From Heterodontus francisci (Eukaryota), in the NCBI RefSeq assembly GCF_036365525.1, contig NC_090383.1, positions 10,653,384 through 10,717,383 of the forward strand: a DNA stretch of 64,000 nt, in the 5' to 3' direction. The position numbers and the translations under genes were made by a program. Shown here one piece after another: positions 1 to 64,000 of the stretch. Under the pieces are notes generated by a model that was not told the DNA's origin, ran no database searches, and saw only the letters and a program-made list of their open reading frames with translations. Positions within the stretch are counted from its first letter, which is position 1. Every line of letters begins with the position of its first letter.

Positions 1-1104
1 GCTGTCGGCTCGGGCAACAATAGGGGCACCAGTTGGGGGGGGGGGGGGGGGGGGGAGAGAAAAACCAGCCAGTCCTTGTGCCCTTGCTTAGCATCCAGTG
101 CCGTCTGCTGACGAATGCGTGGGTGCAGGCAGCAGCCAAGAGAAGGGTGAGGTTCCCTGCAAATGAATAGCCTGCCAACATACAGGTAGAATGGGAAACT
201 GGACAAGTTTCCAGAGGGCACGTAGTGCCTGTAGAATTGCAAACAAGCAGGCACTAGTGTCCATAGGATTGGCAAAGAGAAACTTAGAGAGGAAATTTAA
301 AAAAAAATAAATGTTCAACCATATTTTCCATTGTGAAATATTACTGAATAAAAATTTAGTGAAAATAAAGCCCAGTGCTTACTTAAAATTTACATAATAA
401 AAAGTGCAGGTTGTCAGTTTGTTTTACATCTGTCTCTCAACACAGCATCTTACTGTCTTATCACCCAGGTATCTGAAAGTGCTTTTGAAAATTGATTTAC
501 ACCAGACGAGTGATAATGATCAGCGGTAATGAATTAGAAGACATGCAATTATGGCAATTAACAGTTTATAAAAAAACAAAGCAATTCTCCACTTAGGCAT
601 CTAGATTTGGTCCCTCCCCACAGTTCCCATGCCTTGTGGAATTCCCTGATTTTACATGAAATTTATCAGTGCAAAATTCATGGGAAGAAAATTGGGCTGG
701 GTAATTATGTGCCTGGAAAGAGGGAGGAGAAGAGGGATGAGAGAGGGAGAGAGTAAGAAAGAGATTGTGGAGGAAGCAGAGAAGGGGCAGAAAGAGGGAA
801 CAATAAACACGAGAAAGGGAGACACAAAGAACTAAAGCATGGAAGATACCCGGAGACCGCACATCTTGTACCAACATAAAATGGGGAATATTTTGGTAAA
901 ATAAGCACTTTAGAAGTTTATCTTCGATGCTGGAAAACCCCTGACTAATGCATAACAATAGATAATAGGAATTTGAAGCTCATCTACCCTCTCACTCAAG
1001 AAAACCATTAAAGCTTAACCACACAGAGGAAACAACCCACATCAAGGTCTCCAGTGCTCCACAGGTAGCAATCCCTTTGCATCATAGACAGGAGTTTTAG
1101 AGAA

Positions 1105-1827
1105 GTGGTTACACCCAAGGTGCAGGCAGATAGATGGGTGACTGCTAGAAGGGGCAGGCAGTCAGTGCAGGAATCCCCTGTGGCTATCCCCCTCTCTAAC
1201 AAGTATACTGTTTTGGATACTGTTGGGGAGGATGGCCTATCAGGGGAAAACAGCAGCAGCCAGAGCAGTGGCACCACGGCTGGCACTGTTGTTCAGCAGG
1301 GAAGGACAAAGCGCAGAAGAGCAATAGTTATAGGGGACTCTATAGTCAGGGGCACAGATAGGTGCTTCTGTGGACGTGAAAGAGACTCAAGGATGGTATG
1401 CTGCCTCCCTGGTGCCAGGGTCAAGGATGTCTCTGAACGGACAGGGGGCATTCTGAAGGGGGAGGGTGAACAGCCAAAGGTTGTGGTACACATCGGTACC
1501 AATGACATAGGCAGGAAGAGTGATGAGGTCCTGCAGGGGGAGTTTAGGGTGTTAGGTAGTAAATTAAAAAACAGGACCTCTAGGGTTGTAATCTCTGGAT
1601 TACTCCCTGTGCCACATGCCAGTGAGGCTAGAAATAGGAAGATAGTGCAGCTAAACACGTGGCTGAGCAGCTGGTGTAGAAGGGAGGGTTTCAGATATCT
1701 GGACCATTGGGCTCTCTTCAGGGACAGATGGGACCTGTACAAGAAGGATGGATTGCATCTAAACTGGAGGGGCACTAATATCCTGGCTGCAAGGTTTGCT
1801 AGCGTCACTTGGGAGGGTTTAAACTAG
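1105..1827 (+). CDS. CR1 ORF1 SGNH/GDSL esterase domain (N-terminus missing)
   Basis: Motifs IGDSIVRG, CLPGA, HIGTND and DGLHLN are the SGNH blocks typical of CR1 ORF1p. The frame is open for 240 aa. Confidence 0.88.
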   Translation: MVTPKVQADRWVTARRGRQSVQESPVAIPLSNKYTVLDTVGEDGLSGENSSSQSSGTTAGTVVQQGRTKRRRAIVIGDSIVRGTDRCFCGRERDSRMVCCLPGARVKDVSERTGGILKGEGEQPKVVVHIGTNDIGRKSDEVLQGEFRVLGSKLKNRTSRVVISGLLPVPHASEARNRKIVQLNTWLSSWCRREGFRYLDHWALFRDRWDLYKKDGLHLNWRGTNILAARFASVTWEGLN

Positions 1828-1959
1828 TGTGGCAGGGGGGTGGGAACCATTGCAGTAGGACAGCTAGTGAAATAAATGAGGAGGACATAGTAAATCAGGC
1901 CAGGAGGACTAAGAGGAAGAGCAGGCAGGGAGATGTTGCTGAGCACAGCGGGACTGGTG

Positions 1960-4760
1960 GTCTGAAGTGCATTTGTTTCAATGCGAGAAGTATAACAGGT
2001 AAGGCAGATGAACTTAGAGCTTGGATTAGTACTTGGAAATATGATGTTGTTGCTATTACAGAGACTTGGTTGAGGAAGGGCAGGATTGGCAGCTAAATGT
2101 TCCAGGCTTTAGAAGCTTCAGGCGGGATAGAGGGGGATGTAAAAGGGGTGGGGGAGTTGCATTACTGGTTAAGGAGAATATCACAGCTGTACTGTGGGAG
2201 GACACCTCAGAGAGGTCATGCAGCAAGGCAATATGGGTGGAGCTCAGGAATAGGAAGGGTGCAGTCACGATGTTGGGGGTTTACTAGAGGCCTCCCAACA
2301 GCCAGCGGGAGGTAGAGGAGCAGATATGTAGACAGATTTTGGAAAGATGTAAAGGTAACAGGGTTGTGGTGGTGGGTGATTTTAACTTCCCCTATATTGA
2401 CTGGGACTCACTTAGTGCTCAGGGTTTGGATGGGGCAGAATTTGTGAGGAGCATCCAGGAGGGCTTCTTGAAACAGTATGTAGATAGTCCAACTAGGGAT
2501 GGGGCCATTCTGGACCTGGTATTGGGGAATGAGCCCGGCCAGGTGGTCGAAGTTTCAGTGGGAGAGCATTTCGGGAGCAGTGGCCATAATTCCATAAGTT
2601 TTAAGGTACTTGTGGATAAGAGTAGTCCTTGGGTGAAGGTGCTAAATTGGGGGAAGGCTAATTATAACAATATTAGGCAGGAACTGAAGAATTTAGATTG
2701 GGGTGGCTGTTTGAGGGTAAATCAACATCTGACATGTGGGAGTCTTTCAAACGTCAGCTGATTAGAATCCAGGACCAGCATGTTCCTGTGAGGAAGAAAG
2801 ACAAGTTTGGCAAGTTTCGGGAAGCTTGGATAACACAGGATATTGTGAGCCTAGTCAAAAAGAAAAAGGAAGTATTTGTAAGGGCTGGAAGGCTAGGAAC
2901 AGATGAAGCACTTGAGGAATATAAAGACCGTAGGAAGGAACTTAAGCAAGGAGTCAGGAGGGCTAAAAGGGGTCATGAAAAGTCATTGGCAAACAGGATT
3001 AAGGGAAATCCCAAGGCTTTTTATACATATATAAAGAGCAAGAGGGTAACCAGGGAAAGGGTTGGCCCACTCAAGGACAGAGATGGGAATCTATGTGTGG
3101 GGCCAGAGGAAATGGGCGAGGTGCTAAATGAGTATTTTGCATCAGTATTCACCAAAGAGAAGGACTTGGTGGATGATGAGCCTAGGGAAGGGAGTGCAGA
3201 TAGTCTCAGTCATCTCATTATCAAAAAGGAGGAAGTGTTGGGAGTCTTGCAAAGCATTAAGGTAGATAAGTCCCCAGGGCCTGATGGGATCTACCCTAGG
3301 ATACTGAGGGAGGCAAGGGAAGAAATTGCTGGGGCCTTGACAGAAATCTTTGCTTCCTCATTGGCTACAGGTGAGGTCCCAGAGGACTGGAGAATAGCCA
3401 ATGTTGTTCCTTTGTTGAAGAAGGGTAGCAAGGATAATCCAGGAAATTATAGGCTGATGAGCCTTACGTCAGTGGTAGGGAAACTATTAGAGAGGATTAT
3501 TCGGGACAGGATTTACTCCCATTTGGAAACAAACGAACATATTAGCGAGAGACAGCATGGTTTTGTGAAGGGGAGGTCGTGTCTTACTAATTTGATTGAG
3601 TTTTTTGAGGAAGTGACGAAGATGATTGATGAAGGAAGGGCAGTGGATGTTATCTATATGGACTTTAGTAAAGCCTTTGACAAGGTCCCGCATGGCAGAC
3701 TGGTACAAAAGGTGAAGTCACACGGGATCAGAGGTGACCTGGCAAGATGGATACAGAACTGGCTCGGTCATAGAAGACAGAAGGTATCAGTGGATGGGTG
3801 TTTTTCTGAATGGAGGAATGTGACTAGTGGTGTTCCGCAGGGATCAGTGCTGGGACCTTTGCTGTTTGTAGTATATATAAATTATTTGGAGGAAAATGTA
3901 GCTGGTCTGATTAATAAGTTTGCGGACGACACAAAGGTTGGTGGAGTTGCGGATAATGATGAGGATTGTCAGAGGATACAGCAGGATATAGATCGGTTGG
4001 AGACTTGGGCAGAGAAATGGCAGATGGAGTTTAATCCAGACAAATGTGAGGTAATGCATTTTGGAAGGTCTACTGCAGGTGGGAGGTATACAGTAAATGG
4101 CAGAACCCTTAGGAGTATTGACAGGCAGAGAGATCTGGGCGTACAGGTCCACAGGTCACTGAAAGTGGCAACGCAGGTGGATAAGGTAGTCAAGAAGGCA
4201 TACGGCATGCTTGCCTTCATCGGTCAGGGCATAGAGTATAAAAATTGGCAAGTCATGTTGCAGCTGTACAGAACCTTAGTTAGGCCACACTTAGAATATT
4301 GCGTGCAATTCTGGTCGCCACACTACCAGAAGGACGTGGAGGCTTTGGAGAGGGTACAGAGGAGGTTTACCAGGATGTTGCCTGGTCTGGAGGGCATTAG
4401 CTATGAGGAGAGGTTGGAAAAACTCGGATTGTTTTCACTGGAACGACGGAGGTGGAGGGGCGACATGATAGAGGTTTACAAAGTTATAAGCGGCATGGAC
4501 AGAGTGGATAGTCAGAAGCTTTTTCCAAGGGTGGAAGAGTCAGTTACTAGGGGACATAAGTTTAAGGTGCGAGGGGCAAAGTTTAGAGGGGATGTGCGAG
4601 GCAAGTTTTTTACACAGAGGGTGGTGAGTGCCTGGAACTTGCTGCCAGGGGAGGTGGTGGAAGCAGATACGATAGCAATGTTTAAGAGGCATCTTGACAA
4701 ATACATGAAAAGGAAGGGAATAGAGGGACATGGGCCCCGGATGTGCAGAAGGTGTTCGTT
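1960..4760 (+). pseudogene. CR1 ORF2 endonuclease-reverse transcriptase, disrupted
   Basis: APE is split by a frameshift near 2075, an in-frame TAG at 2285-2287 and a frameshift near 2700. The RT portion is open from 2698 (KFADDTK). Confidence 0.9.
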
Positions 4761-5711
4761 TAGGCAGGCATCAAGATCGGCGCAGGCTTGGAGGGCCGAA
4801 TGGCCTGTTCCTGTGCTGTACTGTTCTTTGTTCTTTGTTCATACACTGTATAGTTATCAATACAATTTGTTGTTTGGCTCCCTTTCATCAACAGTAGAAT
4901 CACTCATCATGTAGTTGCAAGCCAGTTGCTTGTGCAAGGCCTAAAAATCACTCAGTGGCTTTGTGCAATGTTCTGTCTGGTTCTGAGCCATTCAGGTCAA
5001 CCTGTGTTTATTGATCGTTTCTAAAAGAAACGCTTCCAGGCTTTTGGTTGAAGAGGGTTTGTCTCAATGCCCTCTCTGCCTGTTTTCTTTGCAGAAGATG
5101 GCAACTCATCAGCCATTCTTGCCTCGTGAAACTTAAAACCAACAACCAATCCAATAGTCCTGGCTCACTACCCCACCTGACCGAACTGCATAAAACTTAC
5201 AGCACTGAAACAGGCCATTCAGCCCAGCTGGCTTATTCTGGTGCTTATGCCTCCTCCCAACTCTCTTCATCTCACTATATCGGCACATCCTGCAGGAAGC
5301 TGAGCAATCTGTGTAGTAGTGAAAATAGGACAATTTTCTAAGTTCATCATTCACCTTTTGCTTATTCCAGTGAACAACAGCAAAATGCAAGGATGAATCA
5401 AAGAACTACAATGTAACACGGACAATTGTTTCAGTGCTTCCAATAATTTCCCTACCATCCCCACTTCAGCTACAGCATAATTTGAAGAACTTGGTGCCCA
5501 CTAAATATATAAATGGTTATCTTTAGGGATGAATCAACCTCTGCCCTGAGCTCTGGGTCTGACCCATTACTAATGTAGAACCCAGGGTCAGTGATGCAAA
5601 GTGGGGCGTTCCTGTAATTGGCATCTAACAAAAAATTCTTCTTAACTGGACATACCAGGAAGGACATTCATTGGTCAACTTGGTTCCACCACTTCTCAAG
5701 TTAGTAACTAA

Positions 5712-8140: not shown

Positions 8141-10278
8141 TCTTCTTCTTCTTCTTTGGCCTCTTTGTCTCGGGAGACAATGGGTAAGCGCCTGGAGGTG
8201 GTCAGTGGTTTGTGAAGCAGTGCCTGGAGTGGCTATAAAGGCCAACTCTAGAGTGACAGACTCTTCCACAGGTGCTGCAGATAAAATTGGTTGTCAGGGC
8301 TGTTACACAGTTGGCTCTCCCCTTTCGCTTCTGTCTTTTTTCCTGCCAACTGCTAAGTGTCTTCGACTCACCACTCTTTAGCCCCGCCTTTATGGCTGTC
8401 CGCCAGCTCTGGCGATCACTGGCAACTGACTCTCACGACTTGTGATCAATGTCACAGGACTTCATGTTGCGTTTGCAGACGTATTTAAAGCGGAGACATG
8501 GACGGCCGGTGGGTCTGATATCAGTGACGAGCTCGCTGTACAATGTGTCCTTGGGGATCCTGCCATCTACCATGTGGCTCACATGGCCAAGCCATCTCAA
8601 ACGCCACTGGCTCAGTAGGGGGTATATGCTGGGGATGTTGACCGCCTCGAGGACTTCTGTGTTGGAGGTACGGTCCTGCCACCTGATGCCAAGGATTCTC
8701 CGGAGGCAGCGAAGATGGAATGAATTGAGACTTCACTCTTGTCCAGGCCTCGCTGCCATAGAGCAAGGTACTAAGAACACAGGCTTGATACACTCGGACT
8801 TTTGTGTTCCGTAGCAGTGCACCATTTTTCCACACTTTGTTGGCCAGTCTGGACATAGCAGTGGAAGCCTTTCCCATACGCTTGTTGATTTCTGCATCGA
8901 GAGACAGGCTATTGGTGATAGTTGAGCCTAGGTAGGTGAACTCTTGAACCACTTCCAGAGCGTGGTTGCCGATATTGATGGATGGAGCATTTCTGACGTC
9001 CTGTCCCATGATGTATGTTTTCTTGAGGCTGATGGTTAGGTCAAATTCATTGCAAGCAGCCACAATCCTGTCGATGGGTCTCTGCAGACACTCTTCAGTG
9101 TGAGATGTTAATGCAGCATCGTCAGCAAAGAGGAGTTCCCTGATGAGGACTTTCTGTACTTTGATCTTCGCTCTTAGACGGACAAGGTTGAACAACCTGC
9201 CACCTGATCTTGCATGGAGGAAAATTCCCTCTTCTGAAGACTTGAACACATGTGAGAGCAGCAGAGAGAAGAAGATCCCAAACAGTGCAGGTGCAAGAAC
9301 ACAGCCCTGTTTCACGCCACTCAGGATAGGAAAGGGCTCTGATGAGGTGCCGCTATGCTGAATTGTGCCGTTCATATTGTCATGGAATGAGGTGATGATA
9401 CTTAGTAGCTTTGGTGGACATCTGATCTTTTCTAGTAGTCTGAAGAGACCACGTCTGCTGACGAGGTCAAAGGTTTTGGTGAAATCAATGAAAGCAACGC
9501 AGAGGGGCATCTGATGTTTGCAGCATTTCTCCTGTAGCTGGTGAAGGGAGAACAGCATGTCAATGGTGGATCTCTCTGCTCGAAAGCCACACTGTGCCTC
9601 AGGGTAGACACGCTCAGCCAGCTTCCGGAGCCTGTTTAAAACGACTCAAGTGAAGACTTTCGCCACTATGCTGAGCAGGGAGATTCCATGGTAGTTGTTG
9701 CAGTCACCGCGGTCACCCTTGTTCTTATAGTGGGTGATAATATTGGCATCGCGCATGTCCTGTGATACTGCTCCCTCGTTCCAGCACAGGCAAAGCAGTT
9801 TCGTAGTGTGCTGAAAGTATAGCAGGCTTGGCACTCTTGATTATTTCAGGGGTAATGCCATCCTTCCCAGGGGCTTTTCCGCTGGCTAGAGAATCAGTGG
9901 CATCACTGAGTTCCGATCTTGTTGGCTCTACGTCCAGCTCATCCATGACTGGCAGAGAATGGGCTGTATTGAGGGCGGTCTCAATGACAACATTTTCTCT
10001 GGAGTACATTTCTAGGTAGTGCTCCATCTCGTGGTCCATTTGCTTGCGTTGGTCAGTGATTTAGATTTGAGGGGGGGGCGATCTTCTTGATGGTTGACCC
10101 AAAAGCTCTCTTAATGCCATTATACATTCCTCTGATATTTCCGGTGTCGGAGGCCAGCTGAATATGAATGCATAGGTGTTGCCAGTAGTCATTTGCGCTG
10201 CGCCTGGCTGTTCTTTGTGCAGCGCTTCTGGCTGCTTTAAGTGCTATGGATGTTAACACGCTGGGGGCTTTCTTGTAG
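8141..10278 (-). mobile_element. RTE-clade LINE, 5'-truncated and decayed
   Basis: RT ORF 8521-9558 (GVKQGCVLAP, LLFADD, FTYLGS, LLYGSEAW), upstream KAPGKDGI and NNYHGISLLS motifs, and a (GAA)n tail at 8141-8155. Confidence 0.93.
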
Positions 10279-14629: not shown

Positions 14630-15571
14630 TGTTCTCTTTACTTTTGCTTTCATTGTTTCCCTGTAGCAAAGCTTATGCAATCAGTTTTGATTGTGTTGCG
14701 GCTTGTTGGATGAGGCACTGCCACATGGTGTGGTTTGTGGCAGGGTCCTCCCACACACTGATGTCAATTTATCCCCTTTTCAATGAGGCCTTCAGAATCT
14801 CCTTAAAACATTTTCTCAGGCCTCCTTGAGGTTGGGTGCTATCCTTAAGTTGTGAGAAGAGCATCTGCTTTGAAATTCAATTATTTGGCATGTGGATGCA
14901 GTGTCCAGACCAGCAAAGCCTAAAGCCAGTTTGGTTTTGGAAAGCAGGTTGGATCCTAAAGCCAGTTAGAACAATGCTCAATCGCACTTTTGAGCACCAC
15001 CACCATGTGAGATCCCCATTGCCCCTTGAATAAACCTATACCCAGACTGACTCCAGACCTCATTCCAGACCAGCAACCGGCCTTAGACTTGACCACTACT
15101 AGCTCACCACCTTAGATTTGATCACCATCACAAACTAAACCTACTTTCATAAAGTATACTAGTCCTGGATGCAGTGGCCAGATTAAGAAACATTACTGCT
15201 ATAATTTTCGCAGTGACACCAATATTGTGGCTTTACTGTGTTTCAAAAGAGCATTTCACTTTGCTGCCAGCTCCCAAACCACGCCCCCTCCCCCACTTCT
15301 CCATCAGCAACCTGACCCTCTCATATGCTCTTTTCCCTGCAACTTCTCCTCACACCATCCCCCATCCCCCGCCAGCTTTCTTGCCTGCTGTTTCCCACAC
15401 CCACTCTTGCTATCTCCTTCCAAAAATTCAACTTAGTCATTCCTGGCCTGGAAAACGGAAGAAAGATGACAAACATACAATGTGTATCTGGTCCATCCAG
15501 CCTGTCCTACCCAATTGTGATACCATGTGTAGCACTATATATATACTCCCCACCCAAAACCATGTTATTTT

Positions 15572-16340
15572 TTATTTGTTCGTGGGATGTGGGCATCGCT
15601 GGCTAGGCCAACATTTATTGCCCATCCCTAAGTGCCCTTGAGATGGTGGTGGTGAGCTGCAGTCCATGTGATGTAGGTATACCCATAGTGCTATCAGGGA
15701 GGGAGTTCCAGGATTTTGACCCATCGACAGTGAAGGAATGACGATATAGTTCCAAGACAGGATGGTGTGTGGCTTGGAAGGGAACTTGCAGGTGGTGGTG
15801 TTCCCATGCATCTGCTGCCCTTGTTCGTCTAGGTGGTAGAGGTCGCGGGTTGGGAAGGTGCTGTTGAAGGCGCCTTGGCGAATTGCAGCAGTGCATCTTG
15901 TAGATGGTGCACACTGCTGCCACTGTGCGTCGGTGGTGGAGGGAGTGAATGTGTGTGGATGGGGTGCCAATCAAGCAGTCTGCTTTGTCCTGGATGATGT
16001 CGAGCTTCTTGCGTGTTGTTGGAGCGGCACCCATCCAGGCAAGTGGAGAGTATTCCATCACACTCCTGACTTGTGCCTTGTAGATGGTGGACAGGCTTTG
16101 GGGAGACAGTAGATGAGTTACTCGCTGCAGAATTCCCAGCCTTTGACCTGCTCTTGTAGCCATTGCATTTATGTGGCTGGTCCAGTTCAGTTTCTGGTCA
16201 ATAGTGACCCTCAGGATGTTGATTGTGGGGGATTCGGCAATGGTAATGCCATTGAATGTCAAGGGGAGATGGTTGGATTTTCTCTTGTTTGAAATGGTCA
16301 TTGCCAGACACTTGTGTGGCGCGAACGCTACTTGCCACTT
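15572..16340 (-). mobile_element. 3' part of the tRNA-headed LINE family (CR1/L2 supergroup)
   Basis: ORF 15615-16301 (YKAQVRSVMEYSPLAW) and tail gggcaataaat...ccagcgatgcccacatccc shared with 41090-41140 and 53060-53125. Confidence 0.88.
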
Positions 16341-17440
16341 GGATAGAGGATTGACTAACCAACAGAAAACAGGGAGTTGGGATAAATGGGTTCTTTTCTA
16401 GTTGGCAAGATGTAACTAGTGCGTGGCCACAGGGTTCAGTCCTTGGGCCCCAACTATTTACAATCTATATTAATGACTTGGATGCAGGGATAGAAGGTAC
16501 TATACCAAATTTGCTGATGACACTAAAATAGGTGGGATAGCAAGTTGCAATAAAGAAATAAGAAAATTACAAACGGATATAGATAGGTTAGGTGAATGGG
16601 CCAAAATTTGGCAAATGGAGTTTAACGTGGATAAGTGTGAGGTTATTTTGGTCGGAAGAATAGAAAGGCAAATTATTATCTAAATGGAGAGAAACTTCAG
16701 AGTGCTTCGGTGCAGAGGGATCTGGGTGTCCTCGTGCATGAATTGCAGAAAACTAGTATGCAGGTGCAGCAGGTAATGAGGAAGGCAAATGGAATTTTGT
16801 AATTTTTTGCTAAAGGAATAGCGTATAAAAGTAGGGAAGTGTTGCTGCAACTGTACAAGGCATTAGTGAGACTGCACCGAGAGTACTGCATACAGTTTTG
16901 GTCCCCTTACTTGAGCAGGGATGTAGTTGCAATGGAGGCAGTTCAGAGGAGGTTCACTAGATTGATTCCAGAGATGAGGGGTTTGTCTTATGAAGAGAGA
17001 TTGAGCAGTTTAGGCCTCTACTCTCTAGAGTTTGAAAGAATGAAAGGAGATCTAATTGAGGTATATAAGATGATTGAGGGGATTGACAAAGTAGACGTAG
17101 AGAGGATGTTTCCTCTGGTGGGGCAATCTAGAATGAGAGGTCATAGTTTTAGGATAAGGAGTAGCAGATTTAAAACAGGGATGAGGAGAAATTACTTCTC
17201 TCAAAAGGTCGTGAGTCTGTGCAATTCACTACCCCAGAGTGCAGTGGATGCCAGGACATTGAGTAAATTTAAGGAGGATATAGACAGATTTTTAATTAGT
17301 AATGGGTTGAAGGGTTATGGAGAATGGGCAGGAAAGTGGAGTTGAGGCCGAGATGAGATCAGCCATGATCGTAGTGAATGGCGGAGCAGGTTCGAGGGGC
17401 TGAATTGCCTACTCCTGTTGCTAGTTCTTGTGTTCTTATG
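16341..17440 (+). mobile_element. CR1 RT/3' fragment nested in the opposite-strand LINE
   Basis: KFADDTK-like segment, ORF 16839-17345 (EYCIQFWSP...GYGEWAGKW) and tail ttcttgtgttcttatg. Confidence 0.9.
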
Positions 17441-17770
17441 TACTCGGTCAAATGTTGCCTTGATGTCAAGGGTAATACTCTTACCTCACCTCTTGAGTTC
17501 AGCTCTTTTGTCCATGTTTGGACCAAGGCTGTAATGAGGTCAGGAGCTGAGTGGCCCTGGAGGAACCCAAACTGAGCGTCAGTGAGCAGGTTTTTGCTGA
17601 GTAAGTGCCGCCTGATAGCACTGTCGACGACACCTTCCATCACTTTGCTGATGATCGGGAGTAGACTGATAGGGCGGCAAGTGGCCGGGATGGATTTGTT
17701 CGGCTTTTTGTATACAGGACATACCTGGGCAATTTTCCACATTGCTGGGTAGATGTCAGTGTTGTAGCAT
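17441..17770 (-). mobile_element. Upstream RT piece of the tRNA-headed LINE family (continues into 15572-16340)
   Basis: IYPAMWKIAQVCPVYKK...RPISLLPIISKVME is nearly identical to the translation of 63870-64000. Confidence 0.88.
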
Positions 17771-19649
17771 GTGACCTCCTGTGAGAGGCAAGAAACTAGA
17801 TAAAAACCCCAGACTAATTTGGTGGGAAGAATCTGAGAAATTCCTCTCCGACCCATCTATGTGATCAAAACTAGTCCAAGTGATCACTCCGGTCCTGAAT
17901 TCCAAGCAGGACCTTTTGTGAGAGGTGATGTCTGCCCCAACCAGAAGCAGGTCAAGCTCTCGCTTGAAGGATTAGTGTCGAGCAGGACAGGATAATAATG
18001 AACAGCAAGGGCCTGTAGTCTGAAGACAGTACATGAGACTGCAATGGAACAAAAATCTGTCACCTGCTTCAAAGGAGAGACAGAAGTATTTCTACGCCTA
18101 CTAGAGCTGCTCGTTGAGTTCCAAATCCCAGGTCAGGACAAATGGACAGAGTGAGAAAAAAAGACACTGTAATTACAAAGAGAAAGGAGAAGAAAGCCAC
18201 AGAGAGATGGCAGAGAGTAGGCACGAGAGAAAAACTGCTGATAGAGGAAGCTGCAGAAAGTGGGAGAGGATGTGTGAGGACAAGAGGAAGGGACAAAGAC
18301 ACAGGCATCAACAAGGCAAAGTATGTTGAAGGGATAATGAGAGACAAAAGGAGTGGAAGACAAACAGAATGACAAGAGAGCAGAAAGGAAAAAGACCCAC
18401 AAAACAAGCAGAGTGTTCATCAGAAATGAAAAACAAGCACTTTCTAAGAGCCATGTCACAGAAGATGAAGGGGTGAATATTTATTCACTCATTTTGATAT
18501 CTTTACTCTGTGCCACGACCTTAAGGGCTCCTAACTCTGCCTGCATTTGAGATCTTAGAGCACACGTTGGAAAATGGCCCACAGGTTTCTCAGGAACCCT
18601 GACCTGTTGAAGTCAGGGACTGCAGTCTCTTTTTGTTTGCAATTTTACAAGATTGGCATCAGAATGCCATTGCTCTTGTCAGTCTCCGAGGGATTGTCGT
18701 CAATTGCACAAATCTGACCCCCACTTGAAGCTGATTGGATTGCCTTGCCGCCTGTACAGCAGGGTTTTGAGATGATCCCATTGCTGATGGAGGGATTAGC
18801 CTGTGCCACTTAAATTCTTCCTGTAACGAAAAATGGCAGAATATTTGCTTTATCTGTGTGTTATAGCCTGCCAACAAAGTCTCAGGAGCACGTGACTTGG
18901 AAACAGCAATTTCTGAGAAAGTGATTTTGTTGCGGGGGGGGGTTGTTACTTATTACCAAAAAAACAGACATTCTCACATTTGTTTGGTGGTGGGGGCAGT
19001 GGGGGGGGGGGGGGGGGGTGAGAGGGGGTGGGAGGGGAGTGCTGTTTACAATTGGAAATTTCATCCTCCCTATCCCCCCGCCACGTAGAGTCAGCTTTAA
19101 ACTTAAACTCAGCATCTGACAGGCTGCCGGTTCCAGCAGCAAAGAGGCCGGAGCTATTTCGAGGCCTGGGCCTTGTGCAAAAGGGCATCCCCTCGAGGCC
19201 TGCTGGCTTGAAGCTGTCTCAATAATCAGTGGGGCCGCAGGCCTGGCAGCAGGATTAGGTCAGCGGGGTGGGGTGCCGTGAGGCTGGGGTTGCGATTGCC
19301 AAGGAGAGGGACAGGAGGCAACAGTCCTGATTGGTTTGCTGGGCCTCGCCAAGAGAACTCCTGCTCCCTTCATCCCCGCATAAAAAATTCAAAACCTACC
19401 TGCTCAGAACCTCTTCTGCAACACCTTCAGTGAAACTGGTCAGAGTGCTGTGTGGCACATGCTCCAACCAGTTCTGTGCTATAATGGATCCTGCATACAT
19501 CGTAAGCCCCCATTTTGCACATTAAAACAGGACTACCGCCTGAAACAGGCAGGTGCATGGTCCACTCAGCATAGGTCCCTGTAAAAGTAGCCGACAGTGT
19601 CTCCATTAATGGGACAGAAAGTCTCCTGGCTCCATTTTGAGGCCAACAA

Positions 19650-40334: not shown

Positions 40335-41145
40335 GGCAAGACCTGGACAACATTCAGGCTTGGGCTGATAAGTGGCAAGAAATATTCACGCCACACAAGT
40401 TCGAGGTAATGACCATCTCTAACTAGAGAGAATCTAACCATCTCCCCTTGACATTCAATGGCATTACCATCGCTGAATCACCCACTATCAACATCCTGGG
40501 GGTTACCATTAACCAGAAACTCAACTGGACCAGCCATATAAATACAGTAGCCACAAGAGCAGGTCAGAGGCTGGGAATTCTGCGGTGAGTAACTCACCTC
40601 CTGACTCCCCAAAGCCTGTCCACCATCCACAAGGCACAGTCAGGAGTGTGATGGAATACTCTCCACTGGACTGGATGAGTGCAGCTCCAACAACACTCAG
40701 GAAGCTCAACACCATCCAGGACAAAGCAGTCCGCTTGATCAGCACCCCACCCACCACCTTAAACATTCACTCCCTCCACCATCGACGCTCAGTGGTAGCA
40801 GTGTGGACCATCTACAAGATGCATTGCAGCAACTCACCAAGCCTCCTTCGACAGCACCTTCCAAACCTGTGACCTCTACCACCTAAAAGAACAAGGGCAG
40901 CAGATGCATGAGAACATTACCATCTGCAAGTTCCCCTCCAAGTCACACTTGGAAATATATCGCCGTTCCTTCATTGTCGCTGGGTCAAAAACCTGGAACT
41001 CCCTTCCTAACAGCACTGTGGAAGTACTTTCACCACATAGAGTGCATCAGTTCAAGAAGGTGCCTCATGACCACCTTGTAAAGGGCAATTAGGAATGGAC
41101 AATAAATGCTGGCCTTGCCAGCGACGTTCACATCCCATGAATTAA
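40335..41145 (+). mobile_element. 3' part of the tRNA-headed LINE family
   Basis: VRSVMEYSPLDWMSAAPTTL...; tail gggcaattagg...aataaatgctggccttgccagcgacgttcacatccc. Confidence 0.88.
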
Positions 41146-41554
41146 TTTTTAAAAAGTGGTTCTTAAATTTTCTCTTTTTTTCCCCTAATTTTTCAGCTTC
41201 TTCGTCAGTCAGTTTTCTTTAACCTAAGTTTTGAATTCTGTGCGATTCTTTCATTTTCTAAAGCACCAAAAATATGATTGCCAAGATTCACTATGAGAAG
41301 AAGGCTCAATTGAATCTTAAAAATAACTCTTCTATAGTTATTATGCCTCTAAAAATATTTTTATGTATAGAGAATGTCAAGTGGGCACAGAGACATTAAA
41401 TTGCTTTTATCGTGATTTGGAAATAACTGTCTTAGGATAGCTCAGTATCCACTTTTGCTGCAGCAGCTGACAAGATTTGTCACAGAGCTAAAACAAAAGT
41501 CAGCAGTATGTGTATATGTTAAGGAAGGGCACGGGGATGGTAGTCTGAGTAAAA

Positions 41555-45619: not shown

Positions 45620-47232
45620 AAGAGAGAGGTTAATCGACGTGAGGGACTAAAATCTGACAAGTCCCCGGGACCAGATGGCCTACACCCTAGGGTTCTAAAA
45701 GAGGTAGCTGCAGAGATAGTGGATGCGCTGACTCTGATTTTCCAGTATTCCTTAGATTCAGCAATGGTCCTGTCAGATTGGAAGTTGGCAAATGTTACAC
45801 CGCTTTTCAAGAAAGGAGGTAGAGAGAAAACAGGGAACTATAGGCCAGTTTGCCTATCATCACTTGTCGGGAAGATGCTGGAAACTATCATTAAAGAAGT
45901 CTTAACATTGCACTTGGAAAAGCATAGTATATTTAGAACAAGTCAGCATGGTTTTACTAAAGAGAGATCCCTTTTGACAGATTTATTAGAGTTTCTTGAG
46001 GATGTAACTAGTAGGGTAGATAAAGTAGATGTTGTATACCTGGATATTCAAAAGGCATTCGATAAGGTGCCACATAAAAGTTTAATAGGCAAGATAAGGG
46101 CTCATGGTGTTGGGGGTAATATATTAGCATGGATAGAGGATTGGTTAACAGACAGGAAGCAGAGAGTGAGCATAAATGGGGCATTTTCAAGTTGGCAGGC
46201 AGTGAATAGTTGGGTGCTGCAAGGATCAGTGCTGGGGCCTCAGCTATTTATACTCTGTATTAATGACTTGGATGAAATGACAGAGAGTAATGTATCTAAG
46301 TTTGCTGATGATACAAAGTTCAGTGGAAAGGTAAGCTGCAGGGAGGATGTAGAGAGGCTGCAAAGAGATATAGACAGGTTAAATGAGTGGGCAACAAGAT
46401 GGCAAATGGAGTATAATGTAGGGAAGTGTGAAGTTTTTCACTTTGGTCATAAAAATAGAAAAGCAGAATATTTTTAAAAGGTGTGAAACTGGTAAGCGTC
46501 GATGTTCGGGGAGACTTGGGGGTACTCGTACAAGGAACGCACAAAGTTAACATGCAGGTGCAGCAGGCTATTAGGAAGGCAAATGGCATGTTGGCCTTTA
46601 TTGCAAGGGAATTGGAGTACAGGAATAAACGTGTCTTACTAAAATTGTACAGGGCTTTGGTGAGACTGCACCTGGAATACTGTGTGTAGTTTTAGTCTCC
46701 ACATTTAAGAAAGGATATACTTGCACTGGAGGCAGTGCAGCGAAGATTTACTAAATTGGTCCCTGGGATGAGGGGGTTGTCCTATGATGACAGGCTGAGT
46801 ACATTGGGCCTATATTCTCTGGAGTTTAGAAGAATGAGAGGTGATCTAATTGAGACATACAAGATTCTGAAAGGGCTTGATAGGGTAGAAGCTGAGAGAT
46901 TGTTCCCGCTGGTCAGGGAATCTAGAACACGGGGACACAATCTCAGCTTAAAGGGCCAATTATTCAGGACTGAGATGAGGAGAAATTACTGCATACAAAA
47001 GGTTGTAAATCTTTGGAATTCTCTACCCCAGAGGGTTGGGGATGCGCCATCATTGAATACATTTAAGGCTGAGATAGAAAGATTTTGGGTCTCGCAGGGA
47101 ACAAAGGGATATGGGGAGCGGGCAGGAAAGTGGAATTGAAGCCCAAGATCAGTTGTGATCGTATTGAATAGTGGAGCAGGCTTGATGGACCATATGGTCT
47201 ACTTCTGCTCTTATTTCTTGTGTTCTTGTATG
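45620..47232 (+). mobile_element. CR1 LINE RT + 3' end, 5'-truncated
   Basis: KSPGPDG, NYRPV, KAFDKVPH, QGSVLGP and KFADDTK motifs; tail ttcttgtgttcttgtatg. Confidence 0.93.
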
Positions 47233-53049: not shown

Positions 53050-53412
53050 CATTCTTTTTTCATTCTTTCATGGGATGTGGGCATCGCTGGCAAGGCCAGT
53101 ATTTATTGCCAATCCCTAATTGCCCTCGACATCTGAGAGGCCTGCTCTGCCATTTCAGAGGGCAGTGGGTCTGGAGTCACATGTAGGCCAGACCAGGTAA
53201 AGATAGCAGACTTCCTTCTAAAGGACATTAGTGAACCAGATGGGTTTTTATGGCAATCAATGGTAGTTTCATGGCACCATTACACTAGATTTGTATTAAT
53301 TAATTGAATTTAATTTCCACCATGGTGGGATTTGAACCCATGTCCCCAGGGTATTAGCCTGGGCCTTGGGATTACTAGCTCAGTGACAGTACCACTACGC
53401 CACTGTCTCCCC
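53050..53412 (-). mobile_element. tRNA-derived SINE = 5' end + 3' end of the tRNA-headed LINE
   Basis: Head and body are collinear with 62047-62368; the tail matches the LINE tails at 15580-15635 and 41083-41140. Confidence 0.88.
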
Positions 53413-60284: not shown

Positions 60285-62046
60285 TCACTAATTTATAGAT
60301 GCTTTTTGTAAATTTGTGAGCTCAAAGGGAGGCAAGCCAACAGTGCAGAAATGAAACACTCACCCACTTTTGGCATCTGAACATAAGTTATGTGCAGTAC
60401 CACCAAATGGAGGAAATCTACTTCTACACTGCATCAATAACCAATCAGAAACTCAACCTCAGCAGAATATCTCCCTGCTGCACTTGTGTGACTGTAACAG
60501 TTTGACGCTCATTTATAAACAAATTATAAGCGGTTTTGCGCTGTAGAGTTATCCCCCACTAAGATAGGTGCCAAGACTGACCAAAGCTTTCGTTTTACAC
60601 TATTCCAATGAAACTCAATGCAAGCTTGTGGAACAGCGCCTCATCTTTCTACTGCTCACTTCATGGGCCTCTGGCATTATCATTGACTTCATACCTTGAC
60701 CACAGCTCTCATTTTCTCTCTTGATAGCAGGTGCTAGTAAAATAGAATGGGTGCACCACACTTCTGGGGTTGGGAGAAGTTGTGGGTGTTATAGTGGTAG
60801 GAATCGAGATCCCTATCGATATTGAAACCATAAGGCAGTGATGTTGAAAATGATCCTTTATATACCTTATTACTTAATAGTTAAATAGCTAAGGGAATGG
60901 TAATTTGGAATGCAGAGAATTGAAGCACAGGGGGTTTCTCTTCACTATGGGCTGAGGAGCTGACAGACAGCAGTCAGGTGCTACAGTGCCACCACATGTG
61001 GGAGGGTGTAACTACACAATGACATATTTACAGAAGTTTACATTACAAATGTGGACTCGGGCATTTACAATGGCAAATAGCAAAATGTGACAACAAGAAA
61101 TATAGTTTTGTGGACAGGAGGTGTGTGCAAATGTAAGGGTTTAAAGTTATTCCAGATATGTTGAAATAATCGACTCAAAATGCTAGAAAGTCACTAAATT
61201 AAAACAATATTTAGATTCTCTGAGAAAAAAAATCTCGCTTCTTCAGGTCTCAAATCCAATTCAAACTCTACATATTGCAGAGGCTATGTGTGGTCTATCA
61301 CTTGGACGAAGGGTTCAATGAGCACCAGGCCAGAGAATGTCTAAACTGCAGTGTGCTGTGAAGTATACAGCTTTGTACAAGATGGGTGTTAATAGACTGA
61401 AGTAGAAGACATGAAAACTACTTCAAATGTGCTTTATTTGGACCTTTCCATTCTTTATTACAAAGGCAAAAACTGTAAACAAGGAGACTCCCTGTCCACA
61501 GGCCCTTCACATTATTATAGCAATTTCCACAATATATCATCTCACATCTTTTAAAAAAAACATACACAATGTCATCAGAGTTTTTCCCTCACGAGCAAAA
61601 AAGTAAACAATAGCAGCATTCAATTATTCAACGACACACACATACCTCTGAGGGAGTGCATGGAGAAAACACTGGCAGTCTATGCAGTATGTGTGTAGCC
61701 TTAGAACAAGGTATACCTGAGGTACTGTCAATTACCATCAAAGTTGTATGCTTGGCCAAAAATGTCAGCTGTCACTTCAAATATCACCCAATCAATCAGA
61801 GGCCAGAAACCTTCATTCATTTTTTCCCCCTCAATAGTCATAGCCAGCAAAACTATGCAATTTTCACTGTCATAGGGAACCAATAGTCAGTCTGGAATAA
61901 ACCTTGTTAAACCTTGCATCTTAATTAGGACCCTTATCTTAATTAGGTGTAGCAGATTCAATGCTATGATAACACAAGCTCTGGTGAAACAGGTATCGCC
62001 CATGACTCACCGATTTACTCCAAAATACATGAAAATATCGAGAGGT

Positions 62047-64000
62047 AGGCAGTGGCGCAGTGGTATTATCACTGGACTAGTAACCCAGAGACCCAGGGTA
62101 TTTCTCTGGGGACATGGGTTCGAATCCCACCACAGCAGAAGGTGGAATTTGAATTTAATTAATAAATCTGGAATTAAAAACTAGTCTAATGATGTCCATG
62201 AAGCCATTGTCGATTGTTGTAAAAACCCACCATCTGGTTCACTAATGTCCTTTAGGGAAGGAAATCTGCTGTCCTTACCTGGTCTGGCCCACATGTGACT
62301 CCAGACCCACAGCAATGTGGTTGACTCTTACATGCCCTCTGAAATGGCCTAGCAAGCCACTCAGTTGTATCTAACCGCTACGAAGTCAATAAAAAGGAAT
62401 GAAACCGGACGGACCACCCGGCATCGACTTAGGCACCGGAAACGACAACAGCAAACCCAGCCCTGTCGACACTGCAAAGTCCTCCTTACTAACATCTGGG
62501 GGCTTGTGACAAAGTTGGCAGAGCTGTCCCACAGACTAGTCAAGCAACAGCCTGACATTGTCATACTCACAGAATGATACCTCATAATGTCCCAGACACT
62601 GCAATCACCATCCCTGGGTATGTCCTGTCCCAACGGCAGGACAGTGGCACAGTGGTATACAGTAGGGAGGGAGTTGCCCTGGGAGTCCTCAACATTGACT
62701 CCGGACCCCATGAATTCTCATGGCATCAGATCAAACATGGGCAAGGTAACCTCCTACTGATTACCACCTACCACCCTCCCTCAGCTGATGACTCAGTACT
62801 GCTCCATGTTGAACACCACTTGGAGGAAGCACTGAGGATGGCAAGGGCACAAAATGTACTCTGGGTGGGGGACTTCAATGTCCATCACCAAGAGTGACTC
62901 GGTAGCACCACTGCTGACCGAGCTGGCCGAGTCCTAAAGGACATCGCTGCTAGACTGGGTCTGAGGCAGGTGGTGAGGGAACCAACATGAGGGAAAAACA
63001 TACTTGACCTCGTCCTCACCAATCTGCCTGCTGCAGATGCTTCTGTCCATGACAGTATTGGTAGGAGTGACCACCGCACAATCCTATTGGAGACAAAGTC
63101 CCTCCTTCACATTGAGGATACTGTCCATCGTGTTGTGTGGCACTATCACTGTGCTAAATGGGATAGATTTCAAACAGATCTCGCAATGCAGAACTGGGCA
63201 TCCATGAGGCGTTGTGGGCCATCAGCAGCAGCAGAATTGTACTCAACCACAATCTGTAATATCATGGCCCGGCATATCCCCCACTCTACCATTACCATCA
63301 AGCCAGGAGACCAACCCTGGTTCAATGAAGAGTGCAGGAGGGCATGCCAGGAGCAGCACCAGGCATACCTCAAAATGAGGCATCAACCTGGTGAAGCTAC
63401 AACACAGGACTATCTGCGTGCCAAACTGTGTAAGCAGCATGTGATAGACAGAGCTAAGCGATCCCATAACCAACGGATAAGATCTAAGCTCTGCAGTCCT
63501 GCCACATCCAGCCGAGAATGGTGGTGGACAATTAAACAACTAACTGGAGGAGGTGGCTCCACAAATATCCCCATCCTCAATGATGGGGGAGCCCAGAACA
63601 TCAGTGCGAAAGATAAGGCTGAAGCATTTGCAACAATCTTCAGCCAGAAGTGCCGAGTTGATGATCCATCTCGGCCTCCTCCTGAAGTCCTCAGCATCAC
63701 AGATGCCAGACTTCAGCCAATTCGATTCACTCCGCGTGATATCAAGAAACGACTGAAGGCACTGGATACTGCAAAGGCTATGGACCCTGACAATATTCCG
63801 GCAATAGTACTGAAGACCTGTGCTCCAGAACTTGCCACGCCCCTAGCCAAGCTGTTCCAGTACAGCTACAACACTGGCATCTACCCTGCAATGTGGAAAA
63901 TTGCCCAGCTATGTCCTGTACACAAAAAGCAGGACAAGTCCAACCCGGCCAATTACCGCCCCATCAGTCTACTCTCAATCATCAGTAAAGTGATAGAAAG
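62047..64000 (+). mobile_element. 5' portion of a tRNA-headed LINE (APE-RT, no ORF1), running off the window
   Basis: tRNA-like head, then TNIWGL...PDIVILTE, YHPP, WVGDFN, LDLVLTN, GRSDH, GPDNIP and NYRPISLLS motifs, with several stops and frameshifts. Confidence 0.9.
62053..62127 (+). promoter_or_regulatory. Type 2 Pol III promoter (A box + B box) at the LINE 5' end
   Basis: A box TGGCGCAGTGG at 62053-62063, consensus B box GGTTCGAATCC at 62117-62127, and an anticodon-like arm ctgga-ctagtaa-cccag. Confidence 0.75.

Follow-up and report, generated by a model that had tools for sequence, protein, structure and literature searches.

An elasmobranch Zenon LINE with a SINE head as a candidate for transcription by Pol III

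In the textbook division, LINEs are coding and transcribed by Pol II and SINEs are non-coding and transcribed by Pol III, a split that would be broken if the Pol III use proposed below were confirmed. The closest described relatives of the element studied here are the Zenon LINEs of PMC13343379 (GBE 2026), all of which lack ORF1 and carry A-tails, even where no tRNA head is present. The APE-RT protein of insect, hagfish and coelacanth Zenons and of 39 metagenome loci of the Zenon/CR1 group resembles that of our element, with a single ORF in the Zenons, but no head was matched in the metagenome loci, T-runs are normal in the 39 of them, and an in-frame Met precedes the APE domain in 15 of the 16 relatives with a placeable APE start, whereas the headed LINE has none. 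In the first 400 nt of the hagfish and coelacanth consensuses the tRNA head is absent, and Persaeus, a deletion form of a butterfly Zenon, is without a Pol III promoter according to an extract of PMC6740152.

On the SINE side, tRNA-derived elements (SINE2) share with the headed LINE a 5′ tRNA-like head with A and B boxes, but are short and non-coding, whereas the LINE is 3.3 kb long with a selected APE-RT frame. The DeuSINEs SacSINE1 and LmeSINE1, as described in extracts of PMC5499810 and PMC4824008, consist of a tRNA head, a central conserved body and a LINE-type tail, like the SINE local to our sequence; they are, however, non-coding with tails ascribed to L2-2_CM or CR1-4_DR-like LINEs, whereas the head and tail of the headed LINE enclose a selected RT frame. 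SacSINE1 is a shark tRNA-Deu SINE with relatives in chimaera and coelacanth and with its tail ascribed to L2-2_CM, and the same extract reports no LINE with a tRNA-Deu head (PMC5499810). The function of the conserved SINE body domains is called unknown in PMC4824008. A small-RNA-derived Pol III promoter is likewise found in the TRIMp3 retrotransposons Cassandra, Helenus and Ajax, which unlike the headed LINE are LTR-type, short and non-autonomous, and the same extract states that non-LTR retrotransposons use Pol II (PMC10886601). No description of a Pol III-driven or SINE-headed autonomous LINE was found among titles and abstract openings outside subscription journals and Repbase reports.

The window analysed here is a stretch of 64,000 nt from contig NC_090383.1 of Heterodontus francisci, part of a 6.0-Gb genome. 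The Zenon-type LINE copy at its 3′ edge runs beyond the window to G000:C13:10718711 (L031:3912) and has an A-tail at its end; it is a decayed member of an abundant shark retrotransposon family, with its APE-RT frame broken by stops at 62575, 62895 and 62988 and by small deletions. The tRNA-like gene that ARAGORN calls at 62048-62138 is the sole call within the window, while Rfam returns a weak tRNA-Sec match for the head (E 0.18, below gathering). An earlier sequence-only reading had placed an A box at 62053 and a B box at 62117, where both are confirmed, and had noted an APE domain about 430 nt from the head; the domain indeed starts at 62476, 432 nt past the 5′ end of the LINE, and therefore leaves no room for ORF1. 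Contrary to the emphasis of that reading, the absence of ORF1 is not special here, since all Zenons lack it, and as ORF1 absence and the A-tail are both common to headless Zenons, neither trait supports transcription by Pol III. The body block is presumably the Deu domain and fits the SINE description in PMC5499810.

Table 1. Positions of the Zenon-type LINE copies, their parts and the partner SINE in the window.
Feature	Position	Strand	Remark
Zenon-type LINE copy	62043..64000	+	5′ 1.96 kb of 3.29 kb
tRNA-derived head with long variable arm	62044..62138	+	5′ end ~10 nt upstream of A box
Pol III A box TGGCGCAGTGG	62053..62063	+	
Pol III B box GGTTCGAATCC	62117..62127	+	
Conserved SINE-body block, Deu-domain-like	62230..62366	+	3′ edge is the point where the local SINE departs from the LINE
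Mini-uORF ATG-GCC-TAG	62344..62352	+	directly 5′ of open frame; TAG in 81/102 copies
Single APE-RT frame	62353..64000	+	APE strand from 62476; 975 codons in family
Conserved ATG, +1 frame relative to APE-RT frame	62399..62401	+	starts 46-codon uORF overlapping APE start
Older 5′-truncated copy, 3′ end with A-tail	40336..41146	+	
Older 5′-truncated copy, 3′ part	15565..16339	-	
Older internal fragment, same Zenon-type family	17441..17773	-	
Partner SINE copy	53055..53411	-	same head and body fused directly to the LINE's last ~75 nt

Judged by sequence, the headed LINE is the elasmobranch Zenon of PMC13343379, an identity based on a by-eye match to the first 400 nt of the published consensuses. 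The same first 400 nt are seen by eye in Zenon-1 of CarCar, RhiTyp, ScyCan and HypSab and in Zenon-1/2/3 of SquAca, so that the same head and body open every one of the seven elasmobranch consensuses (five species), and no sequence difference from the headed LINE was found in the compared part. The five published Zenon-1 entries measure 3,244-3,314 nt and, like the headed LINE, have no ORF1 and an A-tail. Within the part of the PMC13343379 consensus supplement that was covered, three B-box motifs matched only in six of the seven elasmobranch rows, and in these first 400 nt the A and B boxes appear by eye to be kept in sharks and a ray though the surrounding sequence has changed. The main text of PMC13343379 contains no match for tRNA, Pol III, promoter or polymerase, and the head, the T-run depletion and the missing AUG therefore go unremarked there. 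The family is already published, and its SINE-headed architecture is unremarked in its paper; proof of transcription by Pol III and of translation would make the element something categorically new. Among annotated proteins, relative fragments reach 85% identity in the sevengill shark and 79% in the manta ray. The RT is up to 48% identical to metagenome and other Zenon-CR1-group relatives, and an RT tree, midpoint-rooted and with no named Zenon included, splits the headed LINE from the canonical CR1 of the window.

The LINE carries its tRNA head as a fixed component, not by chance adjacency. The Zenon-type LINE gives thousands of matches genome-wide, and among 40 stretches fetched around matches there are 25 full-length copies of ~3.29 kb, with a G-rich 5′ end and an A-tail, which differ from the column majority by a mean of 3.6%. 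None of the 25 retains an intact frame, and the family may therefore be inactive in this genome. As the first search query had included the head, the search was repeated with an endonuclease-only query to remove that bias. Seventeen of its 29 non-self matches reach the head, 16 in one piece and one with an internal deletion, while the other 12 stop at scattered points in unrelated flanks and share no alternative 5′ region at their truncation junctions; neither an ORF1 nor an alternative 5′ UTR was found in any copy reached by this query, as the sequence-only reading had supposed for full-length copies. Conversely, with a head-only query 23 of 29 non-self matches continue into the ORF, four jump to the tail and two are cut short. 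In 105 head-bearing copies the 5′ boundary is sharp: over two columns, ~10 nt upstream of the A box, the majority share climbs from ~0.35 to more than 0.8. The expected junction at a fixed point is thus borne out, whereas the target-site duplications expected outside the head are not: they occur in 3 of 25 full-length copies, against 2.8 by permutation. Searches for older subfamilies recovered mostly this same LINE family.

The local SINE (53055-53411 (-) and others) consists of the first ~320 nt of the LINE joined to its last ~75 nt, and the tail includes the final codons of the LINE ORF. Four runs, each from a different further organism, also yield contigs with this SINE joint, and in three contigs of these runs the SINE body is bridged to the LINE ORF. 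The contigs give no start or strand, and the RNA status of the runs is guessed. Internally deleted head-plus-tail forms of the LINE occur in several sizes (L108, L119, L112, L125 and L291), and since L108 and L119 have one identical deletion junction, at least one deletion form spread on its own. The local SINE is presumably SacSINE1. Published work places SINEs of this kind in chimaera and coelacanth and reports no headed Zenon there, so the simpler history would be that an elasmobranch ancestor captured the head through template switching; the alternative order, loss of the headed LINE outside elasmobranchs, is conceivable as well. The sequence-only reading had mentioned neither the Zenon identity, nor that the head comprises a whole SINE body common to the local SINE, nor the lack of an in-frame AUG before the endonuclease.

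The sense strand of the headed family is strongly depleted of T3 and of interrupted T-runs. In the 3,296 majority columns there are no T4 and eight T3, as against 14 A4, 13 C4 and 8 G4, and the absence of T4 or longer expected of a Pol III unit is thus seen in the majority sequence. The 25 copies (81,259 nt) hold nine T4 versus 351 A4, all nine at columns with a non-T majority and three of them at one CpG. The lack of sense-strand T4 claimed earlier for 62047-64000, 40335-41140(+), 15580-16340(-) and 17441-17770(-) is correct, but these four fragments are one family and hence not independent samples. Taken alone, the T4 absence is weak, borderline evidence (p about 0.1): 1.8-2.0 are expected, with P 0.11-0.15 in dinucleotide shuffles and p=0.096 in synonymous shuffles of majority codons, and by natural frame the 807-codon frame gives 0 vs 3.9 (p=0.006) and two others p=0.10 and 0.29. 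The wider depletion is significant: synonymous shuffles of majority codons predict 12.8 T3 in the ORF, where there are 4 (p=0.0003). A third-position T precedes a T-starting codon in 0 of 22 cases vs 40 of 179 (p=0.009), none of the 18 Phe codons has a T neighbour, and TTA codons are absent. Windows of five with at least four T number 4 vs 23.6 and windows of six with at least five T number 0 vs 6.2; across four overlapping natural frames such interrupted T-runs score z -1.9 to -3.4, while runs of A, C and G show no such effect. Degenerate T5 elements function as non-canonical Pol III terminators, and the depleted interrupted T-runs match that pattern as given in an extract of PMC3141230. All these statistics come from one evolutionary lineage in one species.

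Set against CR1, an RTE-type LINE and 39 relatives, the T-run depletion is specific to the headed family, as the comparison with an ordinary CR1 had suggested. The near-complete canonical CR1 of the window (1080-4840 (+), 745-aa open frame), which served as a control, has 14 TTTT, in agreement with the many noted before, and the CR1 of the same genome shows 11 T4 in 3,341 majority columns (17 copies). An abundant RTE-type LINE without ORF1 and of the same base composition has 3 T4 and 19 T3 in 2,417 columns (17 copies); a fragment of this composition-matched control, with GAA-like repeats at its end, lies at 9200-9820 (-), and its clade is presumed from its motifs. Among 80 metagenome loci of relatives, the 39 with a frame of at least 450 aa were used for T-run counts: every one of these headless relatives has at least two T4, with a summed observed/expected ratio of 0.96, and their lowest T3 ratio is 0.64 vs 0.41-0.58 in the headed LINE. 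Neither the head nor the body profile matched in the 80 loci (best E 0.37 and 2.7), and no relative was found in viral contigs; the output of a relaxed ARAGORN run on the metagenome relatives was noise and was discarded.

The LINE ends in a poly-A tail. A built-in terminator before it was considered and rejected, as T-run lengths there equal or fall below the genome background; runs of 4-5 T occur in 8 of 47 scored tails, under the background for T-A tracts of equal length. This differs from T+ SINEs, which have AATAAA and a built-in Pol III terminator before the A-tail, whereas the Zenon-type LINE has no terminator remnant. The T5 noted earlier at 41146-41150 is real, but it lies at an A-tail junction, where T-before-A runs are common genome-wide, and is therefore no evidence of a terminator.

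Overlapping natural frames and majority codons define one 975-codon frame with APE and RT, and Pfam Exo_endo_phos_2 and RVT_1 both lie on a natural 807-aa frame. This single APE-RT frame is under purifying selection: variants present in at least 4 of 102 copies have N/S 66/54 vs 1121/419 for rare variants (p=9e-5), and as silent changes are enriched among common variants, the protein was encoded by the headed lineage itself. In this frame no ATG occurs before codon 284, which lies beyond the endonuclease; the leader contains ten ATGs, the last at 62399. This out-of-frame ATG is intact in 97 of 102 copies, and 93 of 102 keep it at a constant 77-nt distance to the start of APE; six of the seven published elasmobranch Zenon consensuses have an equivalent. 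A leader with ten ATGs upstream and none in frame sits poorly with cap scanning. No frameshift site that would explain initiation was found in the leader, Rfam gives no ribozyme or IRES match there, and no clear coding signal is present in either frame of the 77 nt between ATG 62399 and the APE start. The leader folds in pieces no more stable than shuffles (z -0.4 to +0.5), with z -2.2 for the whole 484 nt. Read-through of ATG-GCC-TAG as a start was rejected: TAG has become GAG in 10 of 102 copies, but through a recurrent CTA-to-CGA mutation with no subfamily link, the spacer length varies between species, and dogfish has, by eye, an in-frame TAA. Fourteen of the 25 full-length copies have a deletion of 4 nt, but the frameshifted subfamily that this suggested was likewise dismissed as query bias on a slippage site, the deletion being present in 13 of 26 copies retrieved with the deleted query vs 4 of 81 in four other sets.

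The reading that we prefer, at a probability of about 0.6, is that of a SINE-headed LINE that would be transcribed by Pol III and translated non-canonically. With the internal A and B boxes as its promoter, Pol III would likely transcribe master copies over their whole length, starting ~10 nt before the A box, reading 3.3 kb since U-runs have been selected out, and stopping in an Alu-like manner at the first T-run in the flank. More tentatively, the uncapped RNA may recruit ribosomes through its 430-nt leader without cap scanning; these could then reach the ORF either by changing frame after the conserved out-of-frame AUG or by starting at a non-AUG codon. The encoded protein would then prime reverse transcription on the A-tail of its own RNA and of the SINE-sized deletion forms. 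In a human system ORF1p is dispensable for Pol III templates, and an ORF1-less LINE would therefore be well placed to make such a switch (PMC2666806, from an extract); against a 3.3-kb transcript counts the view of Pol III as poorly processive, stated in part of PMC10886601. In its fuller form the proposal describes an autonomous SINE, that is, a natural 3.3-kb coding Pol III transcript kept since the shark-ray split and translated without a cap or in-frame AUG, with the body recruiting ribosomes, and this we regard as somewhat better than an even bet; its further part, that the shark SINE is a coding-deleted form of the headed LINE or its head donor, seems slightly likelier to hold than to fail. 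The Pol III interpretation of the sequence-only reading as a whole is partly supported.

A simple meeting of a SINE with a 5′-truncated LINE would be helped by the great abundance of both (3,605 and 10,481 first-look candidates, respectively), but the junction is the same in 17 of the 29 copies retrieved without bias, 23 of 29 head-only matches continue into the ORF, and the published 400-nt starts of five other species show this junction too; these findings have already refuted a chance meeting. An unlikely but more serious account holds that the LINE captured the SINE as a 5′ UTR and is transcribed by Pol II from the captured body or by host read-through, its poverty in T-runs having other causes, such as drift within the lineage or the avoidance of cryptic signals for splicing or polyadenylation. 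In its favour, an equally sharp 5′ end would result from a Pol II promoter inside the element, the lack of T4 does not reach significance by itself, Pol II is regarded as the polymerase of LINEs (extract of PMC5786205), and some Pol III promoters are reported to drive Pol II as well (PMC6023835). Yet the Pol II-type LINEs of the same genome, CR1 and RTE-type, and the 39 relatives have no T-run depletion, C-runs are not depleted as polypyrimidine avoidance would require, the A and B boxes seem by eye to be kept in the published starts from sharks and a ray amid changed surroundings, and the leader with its upstream ATGs suits cap scanning poorly.

This last difficulty is shared by a divided system, as a capped RNA from the same DNA likewise has no in-frame AUG. 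In such a system the Pol III RNA would be a template only and never translated, while Pol II would make a second, capped transcript, from these or different copies, to supply the protein. Such a division would account for both the conserved head and the depleted T-runs with no need for an uncapped RNA to be translated, and the spread of non-coding head-plus-tail forms (L108 and L119, with one junction) implies that trans-mobilisation is efficient. The purifying selection on the ORF of the headed lineage, which requires the protein to favour its own locus, speaks against it, and we consider it quite improbable. If instead the Pol III transcription and non-canonical translation of the headed LINE are true, its RNA would be a natural Pol III mRNA from a long-lived, very abundant element, and two questions would become testable, namely the job of the conserved SINE body domains and whether SINEs can arise as internal deletions of a headed LINE. 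The 2026 consensus library already contains the family, which opens the claim to an immediate check in several genomes.

Several minor observations accompany the family. One shark protein annotated as aldo-keto reductase (P0007) contains ~210 aa of the headed LINE at 85% identity and is probably a gene-model artefact. Across 102 aligned copies, a T-to-G change is present at ~4% of CTA sites vs 0.1-1% elsewhere and is spread over subfamilies, which is a strong context-specific mutation in this genome. Diagnostic variants in columns 324-1119 of the same copies form a mosaic and are not nested; either recombination among several masters active at one time or old decay of CpG sites may have produced this pattern. 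Further CR1-like RT fragments of the window lie at 16340-17285 (+) and 45665-47094 (+), and the former, located between two minus-strand Zenon fragments, probably interrupts one Zenon copy.
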